Positions 5,373-47,523 of a stretch of 64,000 nt of DNA are shown one piece after another. The DNA is from an uncultured Pseudomonadota bacterium (GTDB lineage: Bacteria > CALINM01). The notes under the pieces are model-generated. The model did not search any database, was not told the DNA's origin, and was given only the letters and a program-made list of their open reading frames with translations. Numbering within the stretch: the first letter of the stretch is position 1; every line of letters starts with the position of its first letter. Made by a program: the position numbers and the translations under genes. The stretch covers positions 10,010-74,009 of the forward strand of contig CAZIMS010000003.1 of the NCBI GenBank assembly GCA_964540515.1. The letters run 5' to 3'.

Positions 5373-5374
5373 GT

Positions 5375-20882: not shown

Positions 20883-20925
20883 AAGAGCTTATTTATCCTT
20901 TTTACAGTCAGGGTAATATGCTAAA

Positions 20926-21288
20926 TTGGTGGAAGCAGCATTCTATATAAATCAGCTTTATACTGGATTTGAAAGGATGTTTAAACACATAGCAAAAGTT
21001 TTTGAGAATAATATTGAAGATGACTTCTGGCATAAATCGCTTCTTGAGAGAATGTCTATTGAGATTGAGTCTGTAAGGCCTGCTGTTATATCTAAAAAGT
21101 ATTTTGATTATTTGAATGAGCTTCGATCATTTCACCATTTTTTCAGACATGCTTATGACACAGATATAGACAGAGAAAAGTTCAACATAGTTATAAAAAT
21201 GACAAAACATTTAGAGAAAACGGGAAGAAAAGATTTAGAAAAATTTGTTATATTCCTTCAAAACTTAATCAAGAAAATAGAAGGATGA
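20926..21288 (+). CDS. HEPN / nucleotidyltransferase substrate-binding protein (HI0074-like), toxin-antitoxin partner of the MNT
   Basis: A 120-aa helical protein whose RSFHHFFRHAYDTD fits the R-x(4-6)-H-x-Y HEPN/HI0074 motif. It lies directly downstream of the MNT gene. Confidence 0.6.
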   Translation: MVEAAFYINQLYTGFERMFKHIAKVFENNIEDDFWHKSLLERMSIEIESVRPAVISKKYFDYLNELRSFHHFFRHAYDTDIDREKFNIVIKMTKHLEKTGRKDLEKFVIFLQNLIKKIEG

Positions 21289-21386
21289 TCTTTAATATAT
21301 TTACTAATTTTTTCATTATCTCTACATAGAAAAGGTTTAAGTTTATTTCTTTTTTTTGAGATTAAAATATCTTATAATAAAGCATT

Positions 21387-24002: not shown

Positions 24003-24684
24003 TAATTATAGGATATCCGTAGTTATTCCTGTGTATAATGAAAAGGATAATATTAAAAAGATAGTTGAAGAGGTATTAAAACAAAAGGTAGATGAGATTA
24101 TTATTATAGATGACTGTTCTAATGATGGCACAAGAGATGTTTTAAATAATATAGTTGATGATAATATTAAAAAGATATATCACGAAAAAAACATGGGGAA
24201 AGGAGCTGCTGTAAGAACAGGACTAAAAAGAGTTACTGGCGATATAATTATAATTCAAGATGCAGATCTCGAGTATGACCCTAATGAGTATATTAAGCTT
24301 CTTGAACCAATCTTTAAGGATAAGGCAGATGTTGTTTATGGTAGTAGATTTAAAGGTGTTACGAGGGTTTTTTATTTTTGGCATTATTTAGGCAATAAGT
24401 TTCTTACATTCATCTGCAATTTACTTTATAATACTACTTTGTCAGATATGGAGACCTGTTATAAGGTCTTTAAAAGAGAGTGTGTGACAGATTTAGAGCT
24501 TAAATCTAACGGCTGGGGTTTTGACCCAGAGATTACAGCTCATTTTCTAAAGAAAAAAAACATTCGAATTGTTGAGGTGCCCATATCCTATTATGGAAGG
24601 ACCTATGACGAGGGAAAAAAGATTAGGTGGAAGCATGGCATAGTAGTTTTATTTACTATATTTTGGTGTAAGTTTATAAAGTGA
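23995..24684 (+). CDS. GT2 glycosyltransferase, polyprenyl/dolichyl-phosphate sugar synthase (Dpm1-like)
   Basis: A 229-aa protein with ISVVIPVYNEKDNI...IIIIDDCSNDGT...IIIQDADLEYDP, the classic GT-A DxD fold of Dpm1/GtrB-like enzymes. Its start overlaps the stop of the OST-like gene. Confidence 0.8.
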   Translation: MNSNYRISVVIPVYNEKDNIKKIVEEVLKQKVDEIIIIDDCSNDGTRDVLNNIVDDNIKKIYHEKNMGKGAAVRTGLKRVTGDIIIIQDADLEYDPNEYIKLLEPIFKDKADVVYGSRFKGVTRVFYFWHYLGNKFLTFICNLLYNTTLSDMETCYKVFKRECVTDLELKSNGWGFDPEITAHFLKKKNIRIVEVPISYYGRTYDEGKKIRWKHGIVVLFTIFWCKFIK

Positions 24685-25745
24685 TGATTAGAAAGTTAAT
24701 ACTAATTTTTTTACTGCTTTTACCTCATATTTCTTATGCAAAAGAAGTAGAGCTTCTTAAATATAATACTATTAATGATATTGAAGAGATAAAAGCTGAT
24801 GAAGATACAGCCATTTTAATCCTATCGAGTAGATATTACATTGATGATCTAAGAAAGTTAGTTGGCGATAGGGGATATATTTACTGGGTTCTGCCTTTTT
24901 CTCAAGTAGAAGAAAAAGATTTGCTTGCATTTAGACATCTTGCCGAGACTTTAGGCAGGCATGTTAAAATAAACTTCACATCTGAAGGAGCCTATGTAGA
25001 AGAAGAAGGATGGTTAGATTACAAAATTATTTCTTATTTAGATCTTAACAAAGTTGTTTATGAGAAGATTGTAATATTGTTAGATGTTGATTTTTTCTTT
25101 AGACTTTATATTAATAGTATTTCAAAGGTTAACAATGAGAAAACCTTAGAGATAATGAAGTTTTACCGCAGCATTGAAAGTTATGAGCTTAATGTAAATC
25201 AGATATATTTAATATTAAGTAGAGATATTAATCTCCCTGAATGGGCTGAGGAGTTTGGTTATCTTATAGAAAAGATTTATCATTATTGGAAGAAAAAAGA
25301 GTTCCCAACAAGTTACGTTTTATTGGATGAGGTGGGCAAATATATAGTTTTTGCACAGTATGAAGAAGCCTATGAAATATTATTAGATGTGTTTCCAGAA
25401 CAGTCAGAAAATCCCTATTTTTATGAAAAAATGCTTTTTATAAGTTCAAAATTACGTGCCTTTAACGATATGTTAAAAGCTTTTGAGGAAGGATACAAAA
25501 GAAATAGTGCTATTATTTTTTTAGTGCCTGATATTGCAAAAGAATTATTGCAAAAGAGAGAGTTTTATCCTTCCTATCTATTAGTTAAAAGTGCCTATGA
25601 AAAGGAGATTTGGAATAAAGAGATAAAAAAGTTACTTGAAGATATTATTTTAGAAGGCTATAAATTCTATAATATGTTAAATGAAGATAGTGAGCTTTTT
25701 GAGTTTTTTAAGTCTGAATTGGAAAAGTTAAAAAGTAAGAAGTAG
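24681..25745 (+). CDS. Secreted hypothetical protein (354 aa)
   Basis: Signal peptide MMIRKLILIFLLLLPHISYA. No recognisable domain. Translationally coupled to the GT2 gene (ATGA overlap). Confidence 0.5.
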   Translation: MMIRKLILIFLLLLPHISYAKEVELLKYNTINDIEEIKADEDTAILILSSRYYIDDLRKLVGDRGYIYWVLPFSQVEEKDLLAFRHLAETLGRHVKINFTSEGAYVEEEGWLDYKIISYLDLNKVVYEKIVILLDVDFFFRLYINSISKVNNEKTLEIMKFYRSIESYELNVNQIYLILSRDINLPEWAEEFGYLIEKIYHYWKKKEFPTSYVLLDEVGKYIVFAQYEEAYEILLDVFPEQSENPYFYEKMLFISSKLRAFNDMLKAFEEGYKRNSAIIFLVPDIAKELLQKREFYPSYLLVKSAYEKEIWNKEIKKLLEDIILEGYKFYNMLNEDSELFEFFKSELEKLKSKK

Positions 25746-25764
25746 GGTTTACTGGGAGGTCATT

Positions 25765-27909
25765 ATGTATAGAATAGCCCTTATTGCTTTATCTTTCCTG
25801 TTTATTTTCTCTTGTGCAGGACCAAAGTTTATGAATAAATATGAGATAGAGTATGACGATAACTTTAAAGAATATGTTCTCTATCTTCATGGTGATTACA
25901 AAAATTGTAATAATGTAAAAATCGAGGTGTCCAAAGATGGTAAAAAGCTATTTCAGCAGGAATTATCTGGGAAAGTATCAGATTTTGCGGTAAATATACC
26001 TATAAAAAATCTTGATCTCGGTGAAAATATAGCAACGATTCTTTGTGATGAAAAAAAAGAAGATATTTCCATATCTATTTGGAATTTTAGAAATCCTATC
26101 TTGAGATATGTCTTTTCTCATAACTACAATGACAGTTTGGTTACACCAGAAGTAGAAGAGTTGATGGAAACAGATTTGTTTTTAAATGAGTTTAGAGAAT
26201 TTATACTTAAATCGGAAAAAAATTTTGTTAAAGCATCACCACTTATTGAGTTTTTAGATTATAAAAATAAATCAAAAATTCTTGATGAAGCAGCAAAAAA
26301 AAATTATGCCAGTAAAGAGAGTATGCTGGTTTTTTATGAGTATTTAAAAGGGCTTCTTTTTGACGATAGCTGTTTTAACGTAATAGATACATTGTTTAGC
26401 AGAAAAGACTATTATACAGATATGGAAGTTTTTAACATCCTTATGAGTAGACCTGAAAAAAGGATTTATGATAGATATTTTAATTTCTTTTTAAAAGAGC
26501 CCCATCTAAAGACTGCAATTTTAGAACATTTAATTGCTGATAGGGAATCACAGTTTTTTTTCGAGGCACTCATCTATTTTAAAGATAGAATTAGAAAAGA
26601 AGGATTAAAAGATCCCTTTGTGCTTAAATTTGCTAAAAATTACTTTGCCTATAATAGCCAAGAGTTACCTTTTATTATAGAAATGATGAAAGGTCAGTTT
26701 TATAAAGATGGCATTTTACTTTTGGATATAAATGATTTATATGAAGATAGTGGGAAAGAGGTTTTCAAGCATTATAAAGATTTTAATAAAGTAACAAAAA
26801 TTTATGTTTTAAAAAGACTTTTGCCTATTATTGGGGAAGACGAGGCTATTTTTACTACCGTAATTGAAGAAAGAGATAAAGATTTTATAGCAATACAATT
26901 AGAATATATATCAGCTTTTCCAAATAGGTATGATGATAAAACCTGGAGCTTTATTAAAAAATTAGTTGATGAAAATTATATAAAACTAGAAGTTTATAAT
27001 TATCTTCTAAACGCACCTTTAGAAATGAAAAAATATGGGTTTAGAAAAATTTATGAACAAAAAGGAAATCTTGAAAATTTAGTGAATCTTAAAGGTGTAG
27101 ATGATGAATATTATGAGAATGAACTTGTTAAAATTGCAAAAAAAACAAGAAAAAAAGATGCAGTAATGCTATTAGCTCATTTTAAAGAAAAATATTTAGA
27201 TTTTCTTATTGAAGTATACAAAGATGAGAAAAATGTAAACGACAGGGCAGATTTATTAGAAATGATAGCAGGATTGGGTACAAGGGGATATGATTTTGCT
27301 TTAAATGAAGTTCTTATTAAACCCTATAAGTTAGAATATGCAAAGGTATTGACAACATTAACACTAACGGCTAATGAGGAAAACTTAAAAAAGATTTTAG
27401 AAGATATAATGGGTTATCCAAAAGAATATTTCATTGAAGTAACTATAGGTCTTGAAAATGATAAAAAAAGGATAGACTGTGATAAGATTTTGCCTCAATG
27501 GTTTTATAACAAAAAAGATGAAGAAGAGATTATTAGAGTTGGATGGGTTTGGGCATATTGTTGTCCCCAAAGCTATTTAGACTATATTAAACTTGTTGAA
27601 GAAAGATATGGGAAAAATGAGAAGATTGTTAATGAGACCTTGGATGGCCTGATAGACATTATGAGTATCTTTAAGATAGATTATAAAGAGTTTACCAAAA
27701 ATTATGCTAAAAGCTACTTTGAGAGATTTCCTAATAAATATACCAAACTGAAGGTAGCAGAAATTTTAGGTGAGGTAGGAAGTAAGGAAGATATAAGCTA
27801 TTTCCATAGGTTAATTGAGGGCGAAGATGATACCGATTATATTGATATGATTATATATTTTAAAGAGATATTAAAGAACAGATATAATATTGTTGATGAA
27901 ACTAAATAA
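25765..27909 (+). CDS. Lipoprotein, 714 aa, helical-repeat rich, unknown function
   Basis: Lipobox LFIFSCAG after an N-terminal signal sequence, with a GGAGG ribosome-binding site. No catalytic motif recognised. Confidence 0.5.
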   Translation: MYRIALIALSFLFIFSCAGPKFMNKYEIEYDDNFKEYVLYLHGDYKNCNNVKIEVSKDGKKLFQQELSGKVSDFAVNIPIKNLDLGENIATILCDEKKEDISISIWNFRNPILRYVFSHNYNDSLVTPEVEELMETDLFLNEFREFILKSEKNFVKASPLIEFLDYKNKSKILDEAAKKNYASKESMLVFYEYLKGLLFDDSCFNVIDTLFSRKDYYTDMEVFNILMSRPEKRIYDRYFNFFLKEPHLKTAILEHLIADRESQFFFEALIYFKDRIRKEGLKDPFVLKFAKNYFAYNSQELPFIIEMMKGQFYKDGILLLDINDLYEDSGKEVFKHYKDFNKVTKIYVLKRLLPIIGEDEAIFTTVIEERDKDFIAIQLEYISAFPNRYDDKTWSFIKKLVDENYIKLEVYNYLLNAPLEMKKYGFRKIYEQKGNLENLVNLKGVDDEYYENELVKIAKKTRKKDAVMLLAHFKEKYLDFLIEVYKDEKNVNDRADLLEMIAGLGTRGYDFALNEVLIKPYKLEYAKVLTTLTLTANEENLKKILEDIMGYPKEYFIEVTIGLENDKKRIDCDKILPQWFYNKKDEEEIIRVGWVWAYCCPQSYLDYIKLVEERYGKNEKIVNETLDGLIDIMSIFKIDYKEFTKNYAKSYFERFPNKYTKLKVAEILGEVGSKEDISYFHRLIEGEDDTDYIDMIIYFKEILKNRYNIVDETK

Positions 27910-28822
27910 AATTTTAATTATCTTTCTTCTTTTTTTTAATGTAAAAATTGTTTTTGCACTAAAGATAGAGCCAGATTTCATCAAGATTGGAGAAATATTA
28001 AAAGAAACGGAATACACTTTTAATATTAAAGTTTTTAATAATAGCAATGAGCCAATAGAGATCTTAGGGGTTATAAATCAATGTGGCTTAAATTTTAATC
28101 TTGAGAGGAAATATCTGTCTCCCCTGAAAGCTATATATGGCGAATTAAGATTCAACTCGGGCACTAACCCCGGCAGATTTATTGAATCTGTGAAGATAGT
28201 ATATAAAGAGAAAGACACAATTAAACAAAAAACACTTACTGTTAGCTGGTTCAATAAAGTTGAGTTTTATAGCAAACTTTTTATTTTGGATAAGAAAATT
28301 GATTTAGGTGAAATAAAACAAAATAGAAGCAAAAAATTTTTCATAGAAGTTGTTAATGCTGGTAATAGCGAGGGGGAGATTTTATTTCATGCCCTTGATG
28401 AAGGTTTGACTACAAATGTTAGAGAGAAGATACCCCCCAAATCTAATAAATTTTTGGAACTTAAGCTTGATGCTAAAACAGAAGTTATAAAAAAAAGATT
28501 AAGCTATGAGAAGCTTGATGTAAGAGGGGGTAGTGGTTTTGTAGAAATATTTGGAAGACCTTCTCAAATTTATTCTATTAGTATTGATAATCCTGTAAAA
28601 AAAGACCAGACCTATGAGTTAAGTTTGATAATGAATAATGTAAATAGTTTAGGGCAGTTATTAGAAGTTAGAGATGTTCATGGAAATAAATACGCTTTTG
28701 ATAGATCAGCGATTTTTAGAGGGGATAACATTATCAAGGTGTTTGTGCCAGAAAAAAATATTGATATTGTAGTTAAAAATGGAATTGTTTTGACTGTTAA
28801 GTTTCTACTTAATGATGAATAA
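27890..28822 (+). CDS. Secreted protein with two DUF1573-like (Ig-like) repeats
   Basis: Signal peptide. Repeats IKIGEILKETEYTFNIKVFNNSNEPIEILGVINQCG and IDLGEIKQNRSKKFFIEVVNAGNSEGEILF resemble the DUF1573 consensus (DFG.i..g....F...N.G..pL.I). Confidence 0.35.
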   Translation: MLMKLNKILIIFLLFFNVKIVFALKIEPDFIKIGEILKETEYTFNIKVFNNSNEPIEILGVINQCGLNFNLERKYLSPLKAIYGELRFNSGTNPGRFIESVKIVYKEKDTIKQKTLTVSWFNKVEFYSKLFILDKKIDLGEIKQNRSKKFFIEVVNAGNSEGEILFHALDEGLTTNVREKIPPKSNKFLELKLDAKTEVIKKRLSYEKLDVRGGSGFVEIFGRPSQIYSISIDNPVKKDQTYELSLIMNNVNSLGQLLEVRDVHGNKYAFDRSAIFRGDNIIKVFVPEKNIDIVVKNGIVLTVKFLLNDE

Positions 28823-30500: not shown

Positions 30501-30506
30501 GGTTAT

Positions 30507-33783: not shown

Positions 33784-35505
33784 ATGATTTTTGAAAGATA
33801 TTTTGATAAAAAGATAAGTTTCTTTGTTTTTATATCAATTTTAACTATTTTATGCTTCTTTAATGCCCTCTTTATGGATTTTGTATGGGATGATATTGTA
33901 CACTTAGATAAATTTAAATTTATATTAAAGAATTTTTCTGATTTATTGGATTTTTTCAAAAGTACCAATATTGTTGGACAACCTTTTTACTATAGACCAC
34001 TAATGTTAATAAGCTACGGATTAGATTATCTTCTTTATAATACTAATTCCTTCGGATATCACTTAACTTCATTAATAATTCATATTCTAAATGTTTTTTT
34101 AGTATTTCTGATTACTGAGAAAATATTAAATAAAAATGTTGCTCTTTTAAGCTCCATTATATTTGCTATTCATCCCGTTCACGCTGAACCAGTTGTCTGG
34201 ATATCCGCTCGAGCAGATGTGTTAAGTGCATTATTCTTATTTGCTTCTTTTTATTTTTATCTGAAATTATTAGATGAAGGGAAATACAAATATTTTGGTG
34301 CAACAATATTTTTCTATGCCTTAACAATTTTAACCAAAGAAACCTCAATAGTCTTACCGATAATTTTTTTGATATATCCTTTCTTCAAGAATGATAAGTT
34401 TAAAAAAAATATATATATTACCTTTCTTTTCACTTTGCTTTTGTCTATAGGATATATTATTGTTAGGATTAATATTGTAAACAGTTTTTGGGGAACTGAT
34501 TATTTCCCTTTTCAGTCGAAAATAGCAACTATCCCTTTAGTTATTTTAAGTTACTTCAAATTGTTTTTTTATCCCTTTGACCTAAGGTTGTTATATAATG
34601 AGCCAAAGATATTGTCAGAGCCAAATTTATATTCATTTATTAGTTGGGGGATTTTATTTTTATTCATTTTATTTATATTTACTCTCTACAAACGAGAAAG
34701 ACTGATTACTTTTTTCTTGGTATTCTACCTACTTTTTCTTTTACCTGTTTCAGGTATAGCTACATTTATAAGAGTGTCTTTAATTGCCGATAGATATTTA
34801 TACTTACCCTCCTATGGTCTAATTGTTTTTTGTTCTTATTATTTTTTAAAACTTTATGAGGTTTTTAAAAGTGAGAAGGCAAAAAAATATCTGGAAAAAT
34901 TGTTTTTTGTTTATTTATTAATACTTTTTTTATTGACTGTTTTTAGGAACTTTCACTGGAGCGACCAATTTAATTTTTTATCGAAAATGATAAAAGATAA
35001 ACCTGATTATTATGGAGCTTATATTCATTTAGGAACTTATTATCTATCAGCAAAAAGGTTTAATGAAGCTGAAGATGCCTTTGAGACTGCTTTAAAATAT
35101 ATGGGCGAAGAAGATATACATATAGTTATGAATAATTTTTGTGTTTTATATTTTGAGAAAGGTGATTATGTTGAAGCAGAAAAATATTGTCTTAAAAGTA
35201 TAGAGCTGAACAAAGAGTATTCTTTTCCTTATTATAATCTTGCTTCAATTTATTTAGAAACAGATCAGCTAAACAAATCCTATATTGTAATACAAGAAGC
35301 TATAAAGTATGATAAACTAAACCCAGATTTCTATAATAAGGCAGGTTATATAGCTTTACTTTTAGGGCATATTGATGAAGCAATAATGTACATAGATAAA
35401 GCAATAGAATTAGATCCTAAAAATGAGATGTTTAGAAGAAATAAAGAAATAATATTAAAATTTGGATTTTCTTCAAAGGTGCAAGATGTTGTACAAAAAC
35501 CTTAA
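33784..35505 (+). CDS. TMTC/DUF1736-like TM+TPR GT-C glycosyltransferase (paralog)
   Basis: MDFVWDDIVHL, FYYRPLML, SARADV and IADRYLYLP, followed by C-terminal TPRs. Confidence 0.65.
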   Translation: MIFERYFDKKISFFVFISILTILCFFNALFMDFVWDDIVHLDKFKFILKNFSDLLDFFKSTNIVGQPFYYRPLMLISYGLDYLLYNTNSFGYHLTSLIIHILNVFLVFLITEKILNKNVALLSSIIFAIHPVHAEPVVWISARADVLSALFLFASFYFYLKLLDEGKYKYFGATIFFYALTILTKETSIVLPIIFLIYPFFKNDKFKKNIYITFLFTLLLSIGYIIVRINIVNSFWGTDYFPFQSKIATIPLVILSYFKLFFYPFDLRLLYNEPKILSEPNLYSFISWGILFLFILFIFTLYKRERLITFFLVFYLLFLLPVSGIATFIRVSLIADRYLYLPSYGLIVFCSYYFLKLYEVFKSEKAKKYLEKLFFVYLLILFLLTVFRNFHWSDQFNFLSKMIKDKPDYYGAYIHLGTYYLSAKRFNEAEDAFETALKYMGEEDIHIVMNNFCVLYFEKGDYVEAEKYCLKSIELNKEYSFPYYNLASIYLETDQLNKSYIVIQEAIKYDKLNPDFYNKAGYIALLLGHIDEAIMYIDKAIELDPKNEMFRRNKEIILKFGFSSKVQDVVQKP

Positions 35506-36945
35506 TATATATCCTCTTCCTGTAAAATATCGGCGATCAAAGATGCTAAAAAATACTCTTGGCAGCGCTATGGTAAGATAATAATTTTTTATTTTTATAA
35601 ACTTATAGTATCTATGTTTAATAATTTTTTTTACTAACCATTTTGGAAAAAGGAATAAATAATTATAAAGAAATATAAGACCATAATAGTTTTCATCATT
35701 AAATTCACGCCAATGAAGCCCCTTTTTTGAGTGTAATCCTTCTTCGACAATCCTTATATCATTTTCCTTTAAATAGCCTTTGTCTAAGGCATAATTTGTA
35801 ATACTTGTCTTAGGGTAGTAGTTTAAGAAAAAAAGACTAATTAAATTTGGTCTATGTTCATTATAAGTAAGAATAGCCTTTTCATGATTTTCAATAGTAT
35901 CATCGGGGATACCTATTAGATGGTCTGTTTGAAGAAAGATTTTATGTTTTTTTACAATTTCAATTGATTCTATGATTTTTTTATTAGAAGTAGGTCTTCT
36001 AAGAACATTTTTGCAAAGCTCTTCATTAAAAGATTGTACCCCCATTTGTATATCAAGGCAATTTGCTTTTTTTAGCAACTCTATCTTTTCTTCATCTATA
36101 TTGAGGGGACTGAGACTACAGAGAAAAGGTAATCCAATATATTTTTTATAATCTCTTGAAAAATCTATCAACCAGTTTTTGTTTAATCCAAATAAATCGT
36201 CGGCAAAATGGACATATTTAATACCAAATTTTTTTTTTGCATATAAAAGCTCTTCTAGTACATTTTCAACAGATCTTTGTCGGATGATTAACCTGCTCTT
36301 TAAGGTTTTATAGTAATCGTTAATGCAATAAGAACAATAATAGGGACATCCTCTACTTGTAATTATTAAGTATTCTCTTTTGAGAAAGGGCATCTCTTTA
36401 TAAAAAGGTTCTTTGTTAGGGAATGGGATTTTATCGAGATCTGAAAGAGGACCTTCTAAAAACTCTCCTAACAAAACATTGTCTCTCTTAAAAACGATAC
36501 CTTCAACGGGTTTATCAGGAAGAAATATTTCCTTTTCTTTTATTTCAAGGCTATTTATAAAATTTTTTAAAGATATCTCTCCCTCTCCTATGGAAATGGC
36601 GTCTATGAAAGCATTTGATATTACTTTTTCTGGGACTAAGGTAGTATGAATACCACCAAAAATTATTAATGTTTTTGGTGATATTTTTTTTACTTCCTTA
36701 GCTAAGTTTAATTGAAAGATATAATTATCTGTTAATGCAGAAAAACAGACTATTTTTGTTTCTCTATCTATTATTTTCTTAGCGAGTTCTGAATAATTAA
36801 TTTTAAAAGATGATTTCAGATAAGGGTCAAAGGACCTATAAAAGAATAAATCAGATTCCACTCCTTCTTTTTTTAAAATTGAAAGGAGATAAGCAATACC
36901 TAAATTCTCAAAATCCGGATAGACAAATAAAACTTTTTTTTTCAT
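35473..36945 (-). CDS. B12-binding domain radical SAM protein (class B radical SAM, possible methyltransferase)
   Basis: N-terminal Rossmann-like B12-binding region (MKKKVLFVYPDFENLG...) and the radical SAM cluster motif SRGCPYYCSYC. Its 3' end overlaps the convergent TMTC-like gene by 33 nt. Confidence 0.75.
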   Translation of the reverse strand: MKKKVLFVYPDFENLGIAYLLSILKKEGVESDLFFYRSFDPYLKSSFKINYSELAKKIIDRETKIVCFSALTDNYIFQLNLAKEVKKISPKTLIIFGGIHTTLVPEKVISNAFIDAISIGEGEISLKNFINSLEIKEKEIFLPDKPVEGIVFKRDNVLLGEFLEGPLSDLDKIPFPNKEPFYKEMPFLKREYLIITSRGCPYYCSYCINDYYKTLKSRLIIRQRSVENVLEELLYAKKKFGIKYVHFADDLFGLNKNWLIDFSRDYKKYIGLPFLCSLSPLNIDEEKIELLKKANCLDIQMGVQSFNEELCKNVLRRPTSNKKIIESIEIVKKHKIFLQTDHLIGIPDDTIENHEKAILTYNEHRPNLISLFFLNYYPKTSITNYALDKGYLKENDIRIVEEGLHSKKGLHWREFNDENYYGLIFLYNYLFLFPKWLVKKIIKHRYYKFIKIKNYYLTIALPRVFFSIFDRRYFTGRGYILRFLYNILHL

Positions 36946-38791: not shown

Positions 38792-40645
38792 ATGAACATT
38801 ATCGGTATATCTTCCTTTTATCACGACTCAGCTGTATGTTTGTTAATAGATGGTAAGGTTATTAATGCTATCCAAGAAGAGAGATTTAGTCGTATAAAAA
38901 ACGATATGTCTTTTCCTATCAATGCTTTAGATTTTTGTCTAAAAAATAATGGATTAGGTATCGAGGATATTGATCTATTTGTATTTTATGAGAAGCCATT
39001 TGTTAAGTTTGAAAGGATTTTGGAGAATGTATTAATAAATGCGCCAAAGGGACTAAAATCGTTTGTTAAACAGATTCCTGTATGGATAAAAGAAAAAATC
39101 TTTCTTAAAGATATTATTTATAACTATCTAAAAAATGTGAAGGATGATAAAGCGCTCTTTAATAAGATTGCTTTTGTGCCACATCATTTTGCCCACGCAG
39201 GAAGTGCCTTTTATCCCTCTAACTTTGATGAATCCGCTATTATTACCATAGATGGTGTGGGAGAATGGGCAACAGCCTCTATAGGCCATGGTAGAGAAAA
39301 CAAGATAAGAGTATTCAAAGAGATGTATTTTCCCCATTCAATAGGACTCTTTTACTCTTCTGTTACATATTATTTAGGTTTTAAGGTAAACTCTGATGAG
39401 TATAAGGTTATGGGGCTTGCCCCCTATGGGAATGAAAGGTCAAAAGATTATGAGGCAATTTACGATAAGTTTAAACAGATTATTAAGATAAATGATGATG
39501 GTTCCGTGTTTCTTAAACAGAATTTTTTTGATTACCTCTATGAAGACAGGATGGTAAAAGATCTAAAATGGAAAGAGCTTTTTGGATTCGAAAGAAGAAA
39601 GAAAGATGAAAAGATTGAACAATGGCATTGTGATATGGCTCTGGCAAGTCAGAGAATATTAGAATCTGCTATATTAAAAATGTGTAAACTCGCTAAAGAG
39701 ATTACAAGATCTAAAAATTTATGTTTAGCAGGCGGCGTGGCTTTAAATTGTGTAGCTAACTCAAGGATTTTAGAAGAAAACATCTTTGATAATATCTGGA
39801 TACAACCAGCGGCAGGAGATGCAGGTGGGGCTATGGGAGCTGCTTTTTGTGGTTATCATATCTATTTTGATAAGCAAAGAGAGATAATTAAGGAAGATTA
39901 TGACAAACTTAATTGGAGCTTTTTAGGACCAGAATTTTCTAACTTGCAGATTATTCCTGTATTAAAAAAATATAAGTTAAGTTACTTACACTTTGATAAC
40001 TTTGAAAAATTAGTTGATGAAGCAGTGAAGGAGCTTATTAAAGGAAAGGTGATAGGCTGGTTTCAGGGAAGAATGGAGTGGGGGCCAAGGGCTTTGGGAA
40101 ATAGGAGTATTTTAGCTGATCCAAGAAACAAGGAGATGCAAAGGATTGTTAATTTAAAAGTTAAATTTAGAGAGGGCTTTCGTCCCTTTGCACCAGCAGT
40201 GTTAGAAGAAGATTTTAGAGAGGTCTTTGAAGAGAGGACAGGCTCCCCCTATATGCTTCTAGTCTCTAAAATTAAAGAAGGCCTTAGAAAATATTGTCAC
40301 AGCATTGATAATATGTCTGTGGAGGATAAGATTAATTATTCAAGCTCAGTTTTTCCAGCTGTAACACATCTTGATTTTTCAGCAAGGGCTCAGATTGTAA
40401 ATGAAAGATCTAACTATAAGTTTTATAGATTATTAAAAAAGTTTAAGGAAAATACAGGTTTTGGTATAATATTAAATACCAGCTTCAATGTAAAGGATGA
40501 ACCTATTGTGTGTAGCCCTGAAGATGCCATAAAGTGTTATTTGAAGACAGATATTGATCTTTTATTTATCGAAGATTTCATAGTTTACAAAAAAAGTGAA
40601 AAGGCATATTTTAATAGAGCTTTTAATTTTTTTGAGAGTAACTAA
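38792..40645 (+). CDS. Carbamoyltransferase, NodU/CmcH family
   Basis: N-terminus MNIIGISSFYHDSAVCLLIDGKVINAIQEERFSRIKND is the signature start of NodU/CmcH O-carbamoyltransferases (Kae1/YgjD-like fold). The protein is 617 aa. Confidence 0.85.
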   Translation: MNIIGISSFYHDSAVCLLIDGKVINAIQEERFSRIKNDMSFPINALDFCLKNNGLGIEDIDLFVFYEKPFVKFERILENVLINAPKGLKSFVKQIPVWIKEKIFLKDIIYNYLKNVKDDKALFNKIAFVPHHFAHAGSAFYPSNFDESAIITIDGVGEWATASIGHGRENKIRVFKEMYFPHSIGLFYSSVTYYLGFKVNSDEYKVMGLAPYGNERSKDYEAIYDKFKQIIKINDDGSVFLKQNFFDYLYEDRMVKDLKWKELFGFERRKKDEKIEQWHCDMALASQRILESAILKMCKLAKEITRSKNLCLAGGVALNCVANSRILEENIFDNIWIQPAAGDAGGAMGAAFCGYHIYFDKQREIIKEDYDKLNWSFLGPEFSNLQIIPVLKKYKLSYLHFDNFEKLVDEAVKELIKGKVIGWFQGRMEWGPRALGNRSILADPRNKEMQRIVNLKVKFREGFRPFAPAVLEEDFREVFEERTGSPYMLLVSKIKEGLRKYCHSIDNMSVEDKINYSSSVFPAVTHLDFSARAQIVNERSNYKFYRLLKKFKENTGFGIILNTSFNVKDEPIVCSPEDAIKCYLKTDIDLLFIEDFIVYKKSEKAYFNRAFNFFESN

Positions 40646-40757
40646 AAAGTGGTGGTTAGCCCCAATTATAATTTTTCTTCTATTGTTGAGTATCATTTTG
40701 TATTCAGAGTTAACAGGACTCTCTCCTTTTATTTATACATTTTTTTAGTGGTACTAT

Positions 40758-41114
40758 ATGAAAGATACAAAAATTAATAGATTACCATTGTTAATAATTA
40801 TTTTTTTATTGCTCCTTTACGGAAAATACCTCTGGATATATATACCATTGATTTTGCTGATTCTAATAGAGCTATCTACTAAATCCTTAAGGTTATATGT
40901 ATATGCTTTAAAAAAAACTGTAAAAATTATAGGCACTGTGAATAACTGGGTTTTTCTTACTATAACTTATTTTTTGATCATAATCCCCATATCTTTTTTT
41001 TATAAAAAGAGTAAGAAATCAAAGATTAATTACTATACAAACTCATCTATCCCTTCTACTTTTTTGAATGTGGATTATAAAATTGATAGGGCAAGCTTCT
41101 TTAATCAATGGTAA
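40758..41114 (+). CDS. Small membrane protein (118 aa) adjacent to the carbamoyltransferase
   Basis: Two or three predicted transmembrane helices and a basic tail. No known motif. Confidence 0.4.
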   Translation: MKDTKINRLPLLIIIFLLLLYGKYLWIYIPLILLILIELSTKSLRLYVYALKKTVKIIGTVNNWVFLTITYFLIIIPISFFYKKSKKSKINYYTNSSIPSTFLNVDYKIDRASFFNQW

Positions 41115-42283
41115 TTTGGCATTTTGTTATCTGATTTTTCTAAAAAATTTTTTGATAAAAACTCTACAAGCAGTTCAGCGATTATACTGTTTGCTTTATC
41201 GTTTGGGTGTTTGTCTTTGGGATGCACCCATAGCTCATAGTCTTTATAAACTCTAAAATATGGGAATAAATCAATGTATGTTATTTTATTTTCTTGAAAA
41301 ACATTATGCATAAAGCTATGAATCTTAAAGAAAGGATACTCATCGTTGAGCTTATATAGGATAGGAAAAAACAAAACTATAAACTTAATATTTCTTCTAT
41401 CACATTCATTCTTAAGCTCTATCAAAGAAGTAATATTTAGTTGCAAATCATCTAAGTTATCTTCGGAATAAAGGTTGTAGTAGCTTTGTATAGTTTGGCT
41501 TTTTAGATCCCTTAAAAAGAACATTAGATCGATAAATCTGTATAGGTAAGAAAAGCTAAAAAATCTATCACTGTAATCAATATTCATAGGGGCACCTTCA
41601 AATAAGTCTAAAATTCGGGGATTGGGTTCAATTTTGTTGTTTTTTTTATCATAATAAAAAATGTTACCTTCAACATCATTTATGTTGAAGCCGTAAATAA
41701 CAATATCAGGAGTTAGTCTTAAGGCTATATCCATAAATATATGATAGCAGTTAAAAATGTTGTTTCCAGGGGATGCAAGGTTCATACATTCTATGTCTTT
41801 GTTAGGGAAAAGCTCTCTAAGTTTTTTACATACTTTCTCTGGGTAGGTTTCAGCATCAAAAAGCCCCCACCCAAAGGTAAAGGAGTCACCTAAAAAGGCA
41901 ACTCTAACTGAGTTTTTTGGTTTTTTCTCATCAAAGTCTTTACCTCTAAAGCCATAGTTATTTGTTTTTATAAAACCCCTTTTCTCAGTTGAAGAAAAAA
42001 AGCTGGAAGAAGGATAGATAAACTCCCACACACTATTGGGCTGGGGAAGTAAATATAAAATTTTGTTGTATCCATTAATCTCTCGAGTTTTAATTCTTAC
42101 GTTAGGTGCCTTAAGCTCATAGCTCTTGAAAATACGATTGTAAATAAAAGGAATTCTAAGAATAATCTCGGCAACTATAATCAGATATAAAAGATATAAA
42201 AAAGCTTGTATAAGCTTTGACTTCTTTATAATTATTTGTGGTGACATTAAAGATATTTTAAGAATTTCTCTTTTTTTTAGCAA
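41105..42283 (-). CDS. Membrane-anchored SGNH/GDSL-family hydrolase (esterase or acyltransferase-like)
   Basis: N-terminal transmembrane helix. Block I is AFLGDSFTFGWG (GDS), block III is GFNINDVEG (GxND), and block V is DKHPND (DxxH). Confidence 0.65.
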   Translation of the reverse strand: MLKKREILKISLMSPQIIIKKSKLIQAFLYLLYLIIVAEIILRIPFIYNRIFKSYELKAPNVRIKTREINGYNKILYLLPQPNSVWEFIYPSSSFFSSTEKRGFIKTNNYGFRGKDFDEKKPKNSVRVAFLGDSFTFGWGLFDAETYPEKVCKKLRELFPNKDIECMNLASPGNNIFNCYHIFMDIALRLTPDIVIYGFNINDVEGNIFYYDKKNNKIEPNPRILDLFEGAPMNIDYSDRFFSFSYLYRFIDLMFFLRDLKSQTIQSYYNLYSEDNLDDLQLNITSLIELKNECDRRNIKFIVLFFPILYKLNDEYPFFKIHSFMHNVFQENKITYIDLFPYFRVYKDYELWVHPKDKHPNDKANSIIAELLVEFLSKNFLEKSDNKMPNYH

Positions 42284-42396
42284 GCACCGTTATAAATTAA
42301 AAATAGGCTAATATTAAGTTTTGTTAAAGTTACAATTTTTTATTTAAAATCGACAATTTGACAAAGGTTTGATACATTTGTTAGCATAAGATTATT

Positions 42397-45342
42397 ATGA
42401 GACTTATAGTTATCTATGTGCTCTTTGCATTATCTGGTTTCTCTGCGCTGATTTACGAGCTTTTGTTTACCTACTATCTTAAATTGTTTTTAGGGCACTC
42501 TTCCTATTCTCAAACCTTAGTCTTAGCAGTTTTTATGGGAGGATTGACTATAGGCTCTTTTTTAATAGGTTATTTTATTAGGAAGATAAAGGATCCTGCT
42601 TTTTTTTATATTTTAGTAGAGGTTATTGTTGGATTATATGCCATTTTTTTTGATCCTATTTTTAGAAGCTTTATTGACTTTTCCTATAGATTTGTTATTC
42701 CAGATATTTCAGAGCCCCTATATATAGATCTCTACAGAATAATCTCCTCTACTATTCTAATTATCCCACAGTTTATTCTTTTGGGTACTACTTTTCCTTT
42801 AATAAGTTCCTTCTTATTTAAACTTGAGAATAACATTAATAGAGGCAAGATTTTAGCAAGCTTATATTTTACTAATACAATTGGTGGGGTGGCAGGCATC
42901 TTTTTGTCAGGTTTTATTCTACTTGATTATTTAGGTCTTAGAGAGACTATAACTTTAGCTGGTTATGTAAATATTTTTATAGCATTAGTAATTATCTTTT
43001 TACAAAAAAAAGAAAAAATTAAGGACACTACTAAGGATATTACTGATACGTTACCAAATTCTTTAAAATTAGACGATAGATATTATCTACTTTTTTTTGT
43101 TGCCTTTCTTACAGGTTTTTCTTCTTTTATTTATGAAGTGACCTGGATAAGGATGCTATCTTTAATTTTTGGGAACTCTGTTCATTCCTTTGAGATAATG
43201 CTTCTTTCTTTTCTATTAGGACTTGCCTTTGGTGGCTTCTTTTTGAGCAAGAGGATAGAAAATATAAATAATTGTATTTTTTATCTCATCAAGGTACAGG
43301 TGCTTATGGGTTTTTTTGCCATTGCAACTTTGCCTTTTTATAACATTTCTTTTGATATTTTTTGTTATCTTTTTAATATTTTCCCTAAAACTCAAGAAGG
43401 TTATCATCTTTACAATTTTGTTACTCAATCTATATCCATCTTAATAATGTTTCCTGCCACATTTTTTGCTGGTATGACATTGCCTTTGATAACGCATATC
43501 TTGATTAAGAATGGCTATGGTGAAAAAGTAATAGGCTATGTCTATGGAGTTAATACTATTGGAGCTGTTTTAGGAATTACTATTACTATATATTTTCTGA
43601 TTCCTATAATAGGTCTTAAGGATTCTCTTATTATAGGTGCCTTGATTGATATTATGATTGGTATTGAGCTTTTTTTAAAGTTTGGTGGTGAAAGAAAAAG
43701 TTTATTCAACAAAAAATATTTTTACTTTGCTACAGCTTTAACAGTTGTCCTTATAGGTTATTTTTTTGATCCCAAACCTTTAAAGCTTGTTTCAGGAATT
43801 TACAGGACAGGAGAGTTAATCAAAGATAAAGAAGCAAAAATTATCTATTATAAAGATGGCAAGACGGCAAGTATATCGGTTGTAAATATTGATGATGCCC
43901 TTTCTATTAGAACAAATGGAAAAAGTGATAGTGCTTTATGCATAGATCCTAAGAGACCTCCCGAGTTAGATGAGTACACGGTCTTCTTGTTAGGGTATCT
44001 ACCACAGCTATATATGCCAGAGGCAAAGAGTGCTGTAAATATTGGAATGGGAACAGGGGTAAGCAGTAATATATTATTAAGTAATAGAAATATTGAAGAG
44101 GTCTATACTGTTGAGATTGAGAAAGAGGTTGTAAAGGCAGGTAAGTTTTTCTCGCCCTTTAATGACCTTGTCTTTAAAGACGCAAGAAGCAAGATAGTTA
44201 TTGATGATGCGAGGAACTTTTTCATAAAGAATAAAAAAAAGTATGATATCATTATTTCGGAGCCTTCTAATCCTTGGATAACAGGAGTTGCTAGTCTTTT
44301 TACTAATGAGTTTTATAAGATTGTTGCTGAGGATCTAAAAGACGATGGGGTCTTGGTTCAATGGCTTCAGTTGTATGAGATTGATATTAGATTGATGGTA
44401 TCGGTATTTAAAGCCTTGTCTGAGCATTTTGAAGATTATTATATATACGCACCTAATGATAATGAGGTGCTTATAATATTAAAGAAGAAAGGGAAGCTGG
44501 GGACAATAAAAAGTCTTGTGACAAACAATGAAGTAAATTATTTTTTAAATAAACTAAATATAAATACCCTTTGTGACATTAAAGTCAGAAAAATTGGCAG
44601 TAAAGAGACAATGGAGAAATTTTTTAATACTTTTGATATCACAGCAAATAGTGATTACTTACCTATCCTTGAAAGACAAGCACCAATGGCAAGATTTATG
44701 AATGTTGGTGCAGGAGACTTCTTAAAAATAGCCAATTATTATGTGCCTTTACTTAGATTTTTTGAGGAAGAAAATAAAGGATTTAATTATGTTACCGATA
44801 ATAGCTGCTTTTCAAGGTCTAAGATGGCTTATAAAGCAAAAGTTGTAAGAGACATCTTCCTTTATGATGAGATTTGTTATAATACGCCAAAAGAGATACT
44901 GGAAGATATGTTAAAATTAAAAGCATATTTAAAGGATCCAGAAAAAGTTCTTAGCTTTGATGAGAGGATGAATTTACTGTTGGGTCTTGCTATAACAACA
45001 ATTCCCTACTTAGATGAGAGAGATTTGACTAATATGTGGGATAGTGTCATAAAAAGCAAAGCCTATCTAAGAATGACTGATATAGAAAAAAGTTGGATAG
45101 AACTATTTAGGAGTATCAGTGTTAGGGATATTTATAAGATGAGAGACCAGTCAAAAAAGATTATTCTTACTCTCAAGCAGATGCCTCAGATAGCTAAAGA
45201 GTATCTCTATACCTCTTATTTATTAAGTGATGTCTTATTGGGGTCAAAGAGTAATACTATTAATAATGAGATTAGGATTGAAAGAAGTTTTTGGGGTGAA
45301 AATACAATTATCTATGATTATCTGATGAGCCTATATCTATGA
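42397..45342 (+). CDS. Fused MFS-like membrane domain plus spermidine synthase-like (aminopropyltransferase fold) protein, 981 aa
   Basis: About 12 N-terminal transmembrane helices. The central domain has VNIGMGTGV...IVIDDARNFF...YDIIISEPSNPW, the polyamine aminopropyltransferase (PABS) signature. A C-terminal extension of about 400 aa follows. Confidence 0.7.
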   Translation: MRLIVIYVLFALSGFSALIYELLFTYYLKLFLGHSSYSQTLVLAVFMGGLTIGSFLIGYFIRKIKDPAFFYILVEVIVGLYAIFFDPIFRSFIDFSYRFVIPDISEPLYIDLYRIISSTILIIPQFILLGTTFPLISSFLFKLENNINRGKILASLYFTNTIGGVAGIFLSGFILLDYLGLRETITLAGYVNIFIALVIIFLQKKEKIKDTTKDITDTLPNSLKLDDRYYLLFFVAFLTGFSSFIYEVTWIRMLSLIFGNSVHSFEIMLLSFLLGLAFGGFFLSKRIENINNCIFYLIKVQVLMGFFAIATLPFYNISFDIFCYLFNIFPKTQEGYHLYNFVTQSISILIMFPATFFAGMTLPLITHILIKNGYGEKVIGYVYGVNTIGAVLGITITIYFLIPIIGLKDSLIIGALIDIMIGIELFLKFGGERKSLFNKKYFYFATALTVVLIGYFFDPKPLKLVSGIYRTGELIKDKEAKIIYYKDGKTASISVVNIDDALSIRTNGKSDSALCIDPKRPPELDEYTVFLLGYLPQLYMPEAKSAVNIGMGTGVSSNILLSNRNIEEVYTVEIEKEVVKAGKFFSPFNDLVFKDARSKIVIDDARNFFIKNKKKYDIIISEPSNPWITGVASLFTNEFYKIVAEDLKDDGVLVQWLQLYEIDIRLMVSVFKALSEHFEDYYIYAPNDNEVLIILKKKGKLGTIKSLVTNNEVNYFLNKLNINTLCDIKVRKIGSKETMEKFFNTFDITANSDYLPILERQAPMARFMNVGAGDFLKIANYYVPLLRFFEEENKGFNYVTDNSCFSRSKMAYKAKVVRDIFLYDEICYNTPKEILEDMLKLKAYLKDPEKVLSFDERMNLLLGLAITTIPYLDERDLTNMWDSVIKSKAYLRMTDIEKSWIELFRSISVRDIYKMRDQSKKIILTLKQMPQIAKEYLYTSYLLSDVLLGSKSNTINNEIRIERSFWGENTIIYDYLMSLYL

Positions 45343-46598
45343 GTAGAGAACATAAAGAGATTAAAAAATGTAGAATTTGTGGTAATGATGATTTTGAGGA
45401 GATAATATCTTTAGGTAATTTAGCCTTTACAGGCATTTTTCCCAAAAAAAAAACTATATCTGTACCTTATGGTCCCCTAACGGTTATTAAGTGTTCAGAA
45501 AAGAATGGAAAAGGCTGTGGAGTCCTTCAGTTAAAACATAGTTTCGATAAGTATAAGCTTTATGGCGAGAGTTATGGCTATAGGTCAGCCCTAAATGTAA
45601 GTATGGTTAATCATCTGAAAGATATTTCTATGGATATTAAAAAAATCTTGGATCTGAAAAAAGACGATATTATCTTGGATATAGGTAGTAATGACGGCAC
45701 CTTTCTTTCCTTTTTCGAAAAAGATTACATACTGATAGGCGTTGATCCAACAGCTCTAAAGTTTATTAAATATTATAGAGATGACATTATGGTAATAGCA
45801 GATTTTTTTAGCAAAGATAAGGTTATTAAGCTTATAGGTAAAAAAAGACCTAAGGTTATAACTTCTATTGCTATGTTTTATGATTTAGAAGATCCTGTAG
45901 CCTTTGCTAAAGAGATTAATGATCTACTTGATGATGATGGATTATGGGTATTTGAACAGAGCTATACTCCCAATATTTTTAAAAAAAACGGCTATGATAC
46001 AATATGTCATGAGCATTTACTTTATTACTCATTGAGAGATATAAAATTGATCTTGGATAAGTCTGGTTTTAAGATTTTAGAGATAAAACTAAATAACGTA
46101 AACGGTGCGAGCATAAGGTTATATGCTGCAAAAAGTAGATCGAGATATAAAAGTGCTACAAAGAAGATAAAAGCCATCTTGGAATATGAAAGAAGGATTG
46201 GTTTTTATGAAGAGCCTTTTTTTAAAAATTTTAGAGAGGCTATTTTAAGACACAAAGATGAACTAGTTGGTTTTATTGAGAATGAAATCAAGAAGGGCAA
46301 AAAGTTTTTTGGTTACGGTGCTTCTACAAAAGGTAATGTAATCCTACAGTTTTGTGGTATAAACGATAGGCATATTAAATATATAGCGGAGGTAAATGAG
46401 GATAAGTTTGGTAACTATACCCCAGGAAGTTTGATTAAGATTATATCCGAAAGAGATGCAAGGCAGCTTAGACCAGATTATTTTTTGGTTCTGCCATGGC
46501 ATTTTAAAAAAGGGATTATTTCAAAAGAAGATTCCTATCTTAAAAGTGGTGGCAAACTGGTTTTTCCCCTTCCTAACTTAGAGGTAATTAATGGCTAA
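45339..46598 (+). CDS. SAM-dependent C-methyltransferase with an N-terminal zinc ribbon (sugar C-methyltransferase family, TylCIII/NovU-like)
   Basis: N-terminal CRICGNDDFEEI...C..C zinc-binding domain, a class I methyltransferase core (ILDIGSNDGTF), and a C-terminal domain typical of the Methyltransf_13/14 pair. Confidence 0.7.
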   Translation: MSREHKEIKKCRICGNDDFEEIISLGNLAFTGIFPKKKTISVPYGPLTVIKCSEKNGKGCGVLQLKHSFDKYKLYGESYGYRSALNVSMVNHLKDISMDIKKILDLKKDDIILDIGSNDGTFLSFFEKDYILIGVDPTALKFIKYYRDDIMVIADFFSKDKVIKLIGKKRPKVITSIAMFYDLEDPVAFAKEINDLLDDDGLWVFEQSYTPNIFKKNGYDTICHEHLLYYSLRDIKLILDKSGFKILEIKLNNVNGASIRLYAAKSRSRYKSATKKIKAILEYERRIGFYEEPFFKNFREAILRHKDELVGFIENEIKKGKKFFGYGASTKGNVILQFCGINDRHIKYIAEVNEDKFGNYTPGSLIKIISERDARQLRPDYFLVLPWHFKKGIISKEDSYLKSGGKLVFPLPNLEVING

Positions 46599-47523
46599 TG
46601 TTTTTATAGTAGGTGCTGGCGGTCAGGATGGCAGGATCTTGTTGAACTATCTCAAGAATGAAGAGGTTATATGCTTCTATAAAGAGAGGATATCTTTTTT
46701 ATCTGAAAGAAGGGAGATAAATATAGAAGAATATAAAAAAGAGATAGTTTTTGATATGGTAAGAAGATATAATCCTCAATATTTATACTATCTGGCAGGT
46801 TATCACCATTCTTCCGAAGAAAGTCAAGGGCTTGATATTGATGTATTTGAGAGGAGTAATTTTACCCATGCAGTCTTGTTTAGTTATTTTCTGGAAGCAA
46901 TGAGATTGTATGCCCCTAAGGGTCGTATCTTTTATGCAGCCTCATCTTTAATTTATGGCAATCCTAAGGTAGAGATATTAGATGAGAATAGGCCTATAAA
47001 TCCTATATGCCTTTATGGTATTACAAAGGCCACAGGATTTTTTTTAGCCAAATATTATAGAGAAAAACATAATATGTTTGTTTCTAATGGAATCCTATTT
47101 AATCACGAATCTGAATATAGACCCGAGAGATTTCTTTTTACTAAGGTAATCAAAAGGGCCTTTGCCATAAAAAATGGTTTAGAAAATAAACTATTAATTG
47201 GGAATCTCAAGGCGGTAAACGACTGGGGATATGCCTATGATTATGTGAAGGCAATGATTAATATTTTAAATCTTAAAAATGCTGATGATTTTGTAATAGC
47301 GAGCGGTGAGGCTCACAGCGTAGAAGAGCTTGTGGAGATAGTTTTTTCCCATTTAGGTTTAAACTATAAGGATTATGTATGTGAAGATAGTAGCTTAATT
47401 GTAAGAAATAAGCCTGTCTTGATAGGAAATCCTTCAAAATTAATTAAAGCGACTGGCTGGAAGAGAGAGGTTAGTTTTAAAGAGATGATAATAAGAATTA
47501 TGGATGCTTTAAGAGATGGATAG
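46591..47523 (+). CDS. NAD(P)-dependent sugar nucleotide 4,6-dehydratase/reductase of the GDP-mannose 4,6-dehydratase (Gmd/Rmd) family
   Basis: Rossmann motif VGAGGQDGRIL, catalytic YGITKATGFFLAKYY (YxxxK), and ILFNHESEYRPERFLFTKVIKR matching the Gmd NHESPRRGxxFVTRKI block. Confidence 0.7.
   Translation: MANVFIVGAGGQDGRILLNYLKNEEVICFYKERISFLSERREINIEEYKKEIVFDMVRRYNPQYLYYLAGYHHSSEESQGLDIDVFERSNFTHAVLFSYFLEAMRLYAPKGRIFYAASSLIYGNPKVEILDENRPINPICLYGITKATGFFLAKYYREKHNMFVSNGILFNHESEYRPERFLFTKVIKRAFAIKNGLENKLLIGNLKAVNDWGYAYDYVKAMINILNLKNADDFVIASGEAHSVEELVEIVFSHLGLNYKDYVCEDSSLIVRNKPVLIGNPSKLIKATGWKREVSFKEMIIRIMDALRDG

Follow-up and report, generated by a model that had tools for sequence, protein, structure and literature searches.

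Convergent glycosyltransferase and radical SAM gene pairs in a bacterial glycosylation island, and the linkage of one radical SAM family to a predicted polyprenyl-phosphate glycosyltransferase

Two genes for radical S-adenosylmethionine (SAM) proteins, here called rSAM-1 and rSAM-2, each converge on a gene for a predicted polytopic glycosyltransferase of the GT-C type that ends in tetratricopeptide repeats (TPRs), and both pairs lie within one 64,000-nucleotide (nt) stretch of DNA from an uncultured Pseudomonadota bacterium (contig CAZIMS010000003.1; the whole stretch is referred to as the window). Did both pairs arise by duplication of one functional couple, or does each radical SAM protein have another partner? 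The original prediction, made from the letters of the window, proposed a duplicated convergent module in which the radical SAM enzyme modifies either the sugar donor or the installed glycan, and all four open reading frames (ORFs) were found at the positions it had given, i.e., 33784-35505(+) with 35473-36945(-) for pair 1, and 52953-54602(+) with 54574-55971(-) for pair 2 (genes are hereafter designated by their first coordinate; Table 1). Comparison with other genomes points to another answer. We consider it moderately probable that rSAM-2 tailors a lipid-linked sugar donor which is then used by GT-C and oligosaccharyltransferase (OST) enzymes, and that the two pairs are not a duplicated unit.

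To place both proteins in a genomic context, an alignment of the rSAM-2 family was scanned against GTDB representative genomes (80 loci, best match 47% identical) and an alignment of rSAM-1 against metagenomes (80 loci, few close relatives, best identity 43%, so that statistics for rSAM-1 are thin), after which ORFs were called in all loci and neighbourhoods were compared. The small family 2 glycosyltransferase (GT2) flanking rSAM-2 orthologues was consistently an orthologue of window gene 23995-24684. This 23995-type GT2 is 72% identical to the window protein in loci L172 and L006, and 46-53% identical in L007 (Parcubacteria), L008 (Aenigmatarchaeota), L009 (an archaeon), L010 and L011 (Omnitrophota), and L018 (Nanoarchaeia). 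It is immediately adjacent to and co-directional with the rSAM-2 orthologue in L007, L008, L009, L010, and L011, with ORFs abutting or near-abutting (abutting or overlapping in L007, L008, and L010), and lies no more than three genes away in L018, L172, and L006, while only 3 further GT2s of this type occur among ~150 other loci. The GT2 at 52247-52978, which adjoins pair 2 in the window, was considered as the partner of rSAM-2 and rejected, as the GT2s linked to rSAMs elsewhere are orthologous to 23995. AglJ, PpgS, and ArnC attach sugars to polyprenyl phosphate, and the three small GT2s of the window (23995, 47516, and 52247) have their best NCBIfam matches among AglJ, PpgS, ArnC, and PgfS, all under the curated cutoffs.

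Small GT2s were found near 10 of 18 close rSAM-2 relatives, compared to 14 of 91 distant class-B rSAMs (Fisher p = 6e-4). Based on uniform Pfam scans of all polytopic neighbours, a GT-C of the PMT_2, STT3, or PTPS_related families was encoded within ±3 genes of ~9/18 close relatives vs. at most 12/91 distant ones (~50% vs. ≤13%). A census of 106 neighbour proteins included 16 GT2s, 9 class-I methyltransferases, 8 rSAMs, and 6 PMT_2 proteins. The GT-Cs located beside rSAM-2 orthologues in other phyla had no BLAST similarity to any window protein, only some of them resembled each other, and most seemed to lack a TPR domain when judged by length alone. Such dissimilar partners are expected for a conserved donor pathway that feeds variable transferases. 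On the evidence of gene order, the predicted donor-side pair of GT2 and rSAM-2 is thus conserved while the transferase varies, and the rSAM-2 family travels with the 23995-type GT2 across Patescibacteria, Omnitrophota, and DPANN archaea, often in what appear to be tight operons that include a lineage-specific PMT_2 GT-C.

This tight and specific linkage to a putative polyprenyl-phosphate GT2 and to variable GT-C transferases suggests a tailoring scheme in three steps. The small GT2 would first put a sugar on polyprenyl phosphate at the cytoplasmic face of the membrane. rSAM-2 would then alter the lipid-linked sugar by radical chemistry at the same face, for which C-methylation, deoxygenation or dehydration, and ring rearrangement are candidate reactions among which the sequence cannot choose. 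After flipping, GT-C and OST enzymes would finally move the modified sugar to acceptors in the envelope. Because radical SAM chemistry depends on SAM and a reductant from the cytoplasm, an enzyme of this kind is unlikely to act on an exported glycan; of the two substrates originally proposed, it is therefore the donor that gains comparative support for rSAM-2, and this part of the proposal can be sharpened by naming the AglJ-like GT2 at 23995-24684 as the conserved partner. Methylation, the chemistry initially anticipated for a class-B enzyme, is still a candidate but not the sole option, since AprD4 is a sugar diol dehydratase and the best NCBIfam match is HpnJ. rSAM-1 probably tailors another sugar of the same island, although the context of its family is mixed.

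The scheme would fit within known polyprenyl-phosphate-dependent glycosylation. Lipid-linked sugars are tailored before GT-C transfer in the ArnC/ArnD/ArnT pathway and by DprE1/DprE2 ahead of the Emb/Aft transferases. The same order of events is described for pentofuranose three-component systems (PMC11127046). Like three-component pathways (GtrB/GtrA/GT-C and others), the system proposed here would combine a small polyprenyl-phosphate GT2 and a GT-C with a cytoplasmic tailoring step in between; unlike in the known pathways of this type, a radical SAM protein would carry out the tailoring. What the analysis shows directly are the genes present, their degrees of paralogy, the folds, the synteny, and the neighbourhood statistics; substrate, chemistry, cobalamin use, and acceptors are inferred. 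No description of a radical SAM step in polyprenyl-phosphate, AglJ, or GT-C glycosylation pathways was found in the limited literature collection searched. No GtrA-type flippase was identified in the window, whose small ORFs were not scanned systematically. In both Omnitrophota loci, a gene for a protein of 134-137 amino acids (aa) separates the rSAM-2 orthologue from a polytopic or PMT_2 gene (L010 11464-11868, L011 10876-11289), and a GtrA flippase was ruled out for this protein based on its single N-terminal hydrophobic segment and lack of any Pfam match. A more far-reaching proposal, which we advance tentatively, is that the AglJ-like GT2 and the B12-domain rSAM may form a two-gene unit conserved across domains, in Patescibacteria, Omnitrophota, DPANN archaea, and the lineage of the window bacterium, and may make a radically modified lipid-linked sugar, whether C-methylated, deoxygenated, or ring-rearranged, that serves GT-C and OST enzymes as donor.

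The class-B architecture assigned to both proteins by the original prediction was borne out. Their Pfam matches to the B12-binding (PF02310, cutoff 32.1 bits) and Radical_SAM (PF04055, cutoff 29.5 bits) domains exceed the gathering thresholds (scores in Table 1), the cluster motif CxxxCxxC is present (CPYYCSYC and CPYLCTFC in the two proteins), and AlphaFold models of high confidence (pLDDT 90.9 for rSAM-2 and 91.0 for rSAM-1; predicted template modelling (TM) scores, pTM, of 0.89 and 0.90) have a class-B fold over their full length, including the cobalamin-binding-type domain. Both models match AprD4, MgmA/QCMT, CysS, TokK, TsrM, and OxsB over the full length. Like these enzymes and like GenK and Fom3, the window proteins combine an N-terminal Rossmann-type B12 domain, a barrel with the CxxxCxxC motif, and a C-terminal helical domain; unlike the class-B enzymes named, they reach no curated NCBIfam cutoff. 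The top match of both is HpnJ (TIGR03471; 196.7 bits for rSAM-2 and 105.8 bits for rSAM-1 vs. a cutoff of 577.6), and the AprD4 family diol dehydratase model NF033070 scores 108.5 and 44 bits, respectively, vs. a cutoff of 500.

A fold of this kind is by itself no proof of cobalamin use. Among solved structures, the best match in both sequence and structure is AprD4, the radical SAM 1,2-diol dehydratase of apramycin synthesis, which acts on a sugar (6fd2; top PDB match of the rSAM-2 model, TM 0.76/0.78). AprD4 does not bind cobalamin, and neither does ArsL, with which it shares a sequence network (PMC12931638). However, the family profiles of both window proteins align with AprD4 from the radical SAM core onward only, not in the N-terminal domain, whereas they align with QCMT, CysS, TokK, TsrM, OxsB, and 4Q37 through that domain. 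This agreement with true cobalamin binders favours a genuine cobalamin site in the N-terminal domains of rSAM-1 and rSAM-2. Next to the 77% identical rSAM-2 orthologue in L172, and divergent from it, lie cobalamin biosynthesis genes just upstream (CbiD and three tetrapyrrole methylases, 4518-8281); their position provides weak circumstantial support for B12 use.

Both rSAMs could alternatively tailor soluble nucleoside diphosphate (NDP) sugars or free glycosides, in the manner of GenK, Fom3, or AprD4, and be co-located with GT2 and GT-C genes because all belong to a shared glycan cluster. This explanation, which we regard as unlikely although it deserves some weight, draws support from the NDP-sugar enzymes of the island, namely a GDP-mannose-dehydratase-like enzyme (46591) and a sugar C-methyltransferase (45339), along with a carbamoyltransferase (38792), from the soluble aminoglycoside substrate of AprD4, the nearest solved relative, and from the epimerases and dehydratases seen near rSAM-2 relatives. 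Yet NDP-sugar enzymes make up only 3 of the 106 neighbours, and tight adjacency to one AglJ-like GT2 orthologous group fits a shared lipid-linked substrate better than mere membership of a common cluster.

As a further alternative, the GT2 could glycosylate a membrane lipid and rSAM-2 rearrange the hexose, so that together they would make a modified glycolipid head group and not a glycan donor; one example would be contraction of the ring to give a cyclitol, the reaction suggested for HpnI/HpnJ and Cds. Lipid-linked hexoses are the proposed substrates of the rSAMs in both the HpnI/HpnJ (hopanoid cyclitol ether) and Cds (calditol synthase) reactions (PMC13459092), HpnJ aligns with rSAM-2 over its full length as the best NCBIfam match, the combination of a glycosyltransferase with a B12-domain rSAM is the same as in HpnI/HpnJ, and the rSAM-2 family is common in DPANN archaea and Patescibacteria. 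Set against these similarities, the HpnJ score is far under the cutoff, the partner GT2 is AglJ/PpgS/ArnC-like and not HpnI-like, and the frequent PMT_2 and STT3 neighbours, which are users of polyprenyl-linked donors, argue for a donor role. No hopanoid or glycerol dialkyl glycerol tetraether (GDGT) genes were seen among the annotated neighbours. Overall, a head-group function is improbable in our view, and donor tailoring by rSAM-2 remains the reading we favour.

We then considered the pairs themselves. As initially framed, a TMTC-like GT-C and a B12 rSAM would be a fixed functional couple, duplicated as a unit, with overlapping 3' ends that give mutual antisense regulation. Both pairs are real and alike in arrangement, the best paralog of 33784 is indeed 52953, pair 1 is kept in one other genome (L001), and PMT_2 GT-Cs are enriched near rSAM-2 relatives, yet most comparisons contradict this model, and we judge it very improbable. 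The two rSAMs had been described as clear paralogs: they do share the SRGCPY.C..C and IRQRSVENV motifs, but these are general to both families according to the family consensus lines and occur superfamily-wide, and the proteins themselves are only 29% identical (over 315 aa, BLAST). They belong to two separate families, each with hundreds to thousands of closer relatives elsewhere, which contradicts a duplicated module: 412 relatives at E ≤ 1e-10 for rSAM-1, found in Nitrospirota, Planctomycetota, Geomonas, Nitrospinota, and Elusimicrobia, and >3880 for rSAM-2, of which many belong to Patescibacteria and to DPANN archaea. A recent duplication of the module was ruled out by all-against-all BLAST, in which the members of pair 1 and pair 2 were not reciprocal closest paralogs at similar divergence.

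A similar picture holds for the glycosyltransferase side. The window encodes six GT-C+TPR paralogs (28812, 33784, 36999, 48867, 50420, and 52953) with mutual identities of 25-33%, which points to an ancient divergence, and 4/6 do not converge on an rSAM gene. Among the six, 33784 and 52953 did not pair cleanly as reciprocal best matches (BLAST), as 52953 matches 50420 (33% identity, 215-247 bits) about as strongly as 33784 (32%, 219-241 bits). The proposed likeness to TMTC proteins was only partly confirmed. Like the eukaryotic TMTC1-4 O-mannosyltransferases, these proteins appear to have an N-terminal polytopic GT-C of PMT_2 type followed by C-terminal TPR repeats, with a PMT_2 match in 33784 and TPR families matching the C-termini of both 33784 and 52953 (E 1e-13 to 1e-18). 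Unlike TMTC1-4, they are bacterial and present as six paralogs, and only PMT_2 and TPR models match them: no TMTC-specific Pfam family was among the matches at E ≤ 0.01 for the GT-C proteins of the two pairs. 52953 has no PMT_2 match at E ≤ 0.01 either, but a GT-C N-terminus is supported by its paralogy to 33784, which extends over its full length, and by 8 hydrophobic segments.

Among the relatives compared, pair 1 recurs only in the syntenic locus L001 (rSAM 57% and GT-C 59% identical), where the genes are convergent but separated by a 5-nt gap instead of overlapping. Some more distant rSAM-1 relatives are found in glycan clusters with PMT_2 genes, in a different organisation (the L002/L170 operon, L169, L089, and L094). 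The operon around rSAM-1 relatives that recurs in L002 (5733-15231) and L170 (118-9083) encodes an rSAM without B12 domain, the rSAM-1 relative, a 318-aa GT2, a methyltransferase, an amine-oxidase/GLF-like flavoprotein, a second B12 rSAM (470 aa), and a PMT_2-like protein. A NodU-like carbamoyltransferase occurs together with members of the rSAM-1 family in three loci (window 38792-40645, L001 2138-3952, and L002 15291-16670).

Pair 2 is absent from both of the closest lineages examined, L172 (rSAM-2 77% identical) and L006 (69%), in which rSAM-2 has no TPR GT-C neighbour. In L172, rSAM-2 instead faces a convergent DUF1573 gene that it overlaps by 4 nt; further on come a 370-aa gene, a 223-aa GT2, an AglB-type OST, and a multihaem cytochrome. 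In L006, rSAM-2 is located between a 659-aa protein and cytochrome genes, adjoining the same AglB-GT2 block. This block corresponds to window 15924-28822 (reciprocal BLAST). In the window, the DUF1573 gene and rSAM-2 are ~25.7 kb apart, and the intervening stretch holds all six GT-C+TPR paralogs as well as rSAM-1. rSAM-2 appears to hold a cluster-end position, with 52953 just happening to be the last gene before it. Neither the fixed pairing nor the convergent overlap is retained across these genomes; in other phyla the rSAM-2 orthologues stand in co-directional operons with unrelated PMT_2 proteins, and GT-C+TPR proteins are not the conserved partner. The model of a fixed couple is largely refuted by this synteny.

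The overlaps offer no further reason to treat the pairs as special. Their predicted length of about 30 nt was correct (33 nt in pair 1 and 29 nt in pair 2), and is independent of start-codon choice because it is fixed by the stop codons. However, convergent overlaps are generic in the window: a third junction, between the 118-aa ORF 40758-41114(+) and the GDSL esterase 41105-42283(-), overlaps by 10 nt, i.e., 3/3 convergent junctions overlap, as do 16/39 co-directional ones (maximum 47 nt). In a sequence as compact as this one (33% GC), short overlaps at 3' ends are normal. No terminator-like site was found at either overlap and RNA folding of the overlap regions revealed no excess structure relative to shuffled sequence (z from -0.01 to +1.4); no special RNA element or bidirectional terminator was found. 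The final 8 residues of rSAM-2, which account for most of its overlap, are unconserved in the rSAM-2 family. Both rSAM genes are on the minus strand, so that the gene opposite each is simply the preceding plus-strand gene, which is of the GT-C+TPR type in about one-third of cases (6/17 plus-strand genes in the island; estimated chance of both rSAMs facing one, ~0.1). The convergent arrangement of both pairs is an accident of how genes are ordered in a glycosylation island rich in paralogs.

Several observations weigh against donor tailoring by rSAM-2 and against independent pairs. Operonic coupling is absent in the window, where 30 kb separate rSAM-2 and the 23995 GT2, and about half of the close rSAM-2 relatives (L012-L017, L019, L020, L045, and L140) have no 23995-type GT2 within ±5 genes. 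The neighbourhood statistics come from contigs of metagenome-assembled genomes with home-made ORF calls, the loci are not phylogenetically independent, and the control rSAMs are fairly often located in glycan clusters too, so part of the signal reflects general cluster membership. Relatives of rSAM-1 stand alone among housekeeping or regulatory genes in 3 of ~11 contexts (L004, the P0025 contig, and L171). 33784 and 52953 are near mutual best paralogs (241 and 219 bits), as an ancient duplication of the pair might leave them. Finally, the substrate, the reaction, and the cobalamin use of rSAM-2 are all things we infer.

The genes discussed here belong to a single large, mainly plus-strand envelope-glycosylation island spanning ~21.4-56 kb of the window (Table 1). 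The plus strand holds 43/46 called genes of the window, the minus-strand genes being only rSAM-1, rSAM-2, and the GDSL esterase. GT-C genes are abundant, and the island includes two STT3/AglB OSTs, the six GT-C+TPR paralogs, three small GT2s, sugar-tailoring enzymes, and the two class-B-type rSAMs. Two archaeal-type STT3/AglB-like OSTs (21387-24002 and 31693-33765) thus occur in one bacterial locus; in NCBIfam, each matches the archaeosortase-A-associated STT3 model best (332 and 174 bits, neither reaching the cutoff of 450), and the first has orthologues 45-47% identical in L172 and L006, syntenic with rSAM-2 in these close relatives. Directly upstream of this OST and the AglJ-like GT2 lie two giant multihaem cytochromes (1595 and 1446 aa, window 11124-20264), and the cytochrome-OST-GT2 synteny is also found in L172 (17773-19395) and L006 (9532-17363), which suggests that extracellular multihaem cytochromes may be N-glycosylation targets. 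A fusion of a major facilitator superfamily (MFS) protein with spermidine synthase is embedded within the island (42397-45342), and 1.2 kb at 30500-31693 contain only a 128-aa ORF (31020-31406) without Pfam match.

Table 1 Features of the glycosylation island, in window coordinates
Feature	Coordinates	Strand	Remarks
Archaeal-type STT3/AglB-like oligosaccharyltransferase, 871 aa	21387..24002	+	AglB_L1 and AglB_core Pfam matches; TIGR04154 332 bits
AglJ-like small GT2, 229 aa, predicted polyprenyl-phosphate glycosyltransferase	23995..24684	+	NCBIfam best matches AglJ (126.9 bits), PpgS, ArnC, all below cutoff
Rest of conserved OST block: 354-aa protein, 714-aa protein, DUF1573 protein (310 aa)	24681..28822	+	
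GT-C+TPR paralog, 562 aa	28812..30500	+	
Second STT3/AglB-like GT-C, 690 aa	31693..33765	+	AglB_core-like; TIGR04154 173.6 bits; 53% identical orthologue in L001
GT-C (PMT_2)+TPR paralog, 573 aa	33784..35505	+	PMT_2 51 bits, TPR; convergent with rSAM-1
rSAM-1, class-B-type radical SAM protein, 490 aa	35473..36945	-	Pfam B12-binding 58.4 bits, Radical_SAM 81.8 bits
GT-C+TPR paralog, 589 aa	36999..38768	+	Divergent from rSAM-1, 53-nt spacer
NodU-like carbamoyltransferase	38792-40645		
118-aa ORF	40758-41114	+	51% identity in L001
GDSL esterase	41105-42283	-	
Fused MFS/spermidine synthase, 981 aa	42397-45342		64% identity in L001
Sugar C-methyltransferase	45339		
GDP-mannose-dehydratase-like enzyme	46591		
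Small GT2	47516		
Class-I methyltransferase	in island stretch 38792..48870		
GT-C+TPR paralog, 517 aa	48867-50420	+	
GT-C+TPR paralog, 593 aa	50420-52201	+	
Small GT2, 243 aa, PgfS/ArnC/PpgS-like	52247..52978	+	
GT-C+TPR paralog, 549 aa	52953..54602	+	TPR Pfam matches; 8 hydrophobic segments; convergent with rSAM-2
rSAM-2, class-B-type radical SAM protein, 465 aa	54574..55971	-	Pfam B12-binding 49.6 bits, Radical_SAM 99.7 bits

By itself, the apparent duplicated convergent module is ordinary. The lead that emerges from this locus is the specific association of one rSAM family, in organisms ranging from ultra-small bacteria to DPANN archaea, with one group of orthologous predicted lipid-phosphate sugar synthases and with variable GT-Cs. 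If rSAM-2 and its relatives do act on a lipid-linked sugar, polyprenyl-phosphate-dependent glycosylation would acquire a new type of tailoring chemistry, and a function would be found for thousands of sequences that form a large orphan branch of the B12-domain radical SAM superfamily. Unusual cell-surface sugars would then also be expected in poorly understood and mostly uncultured lineages.

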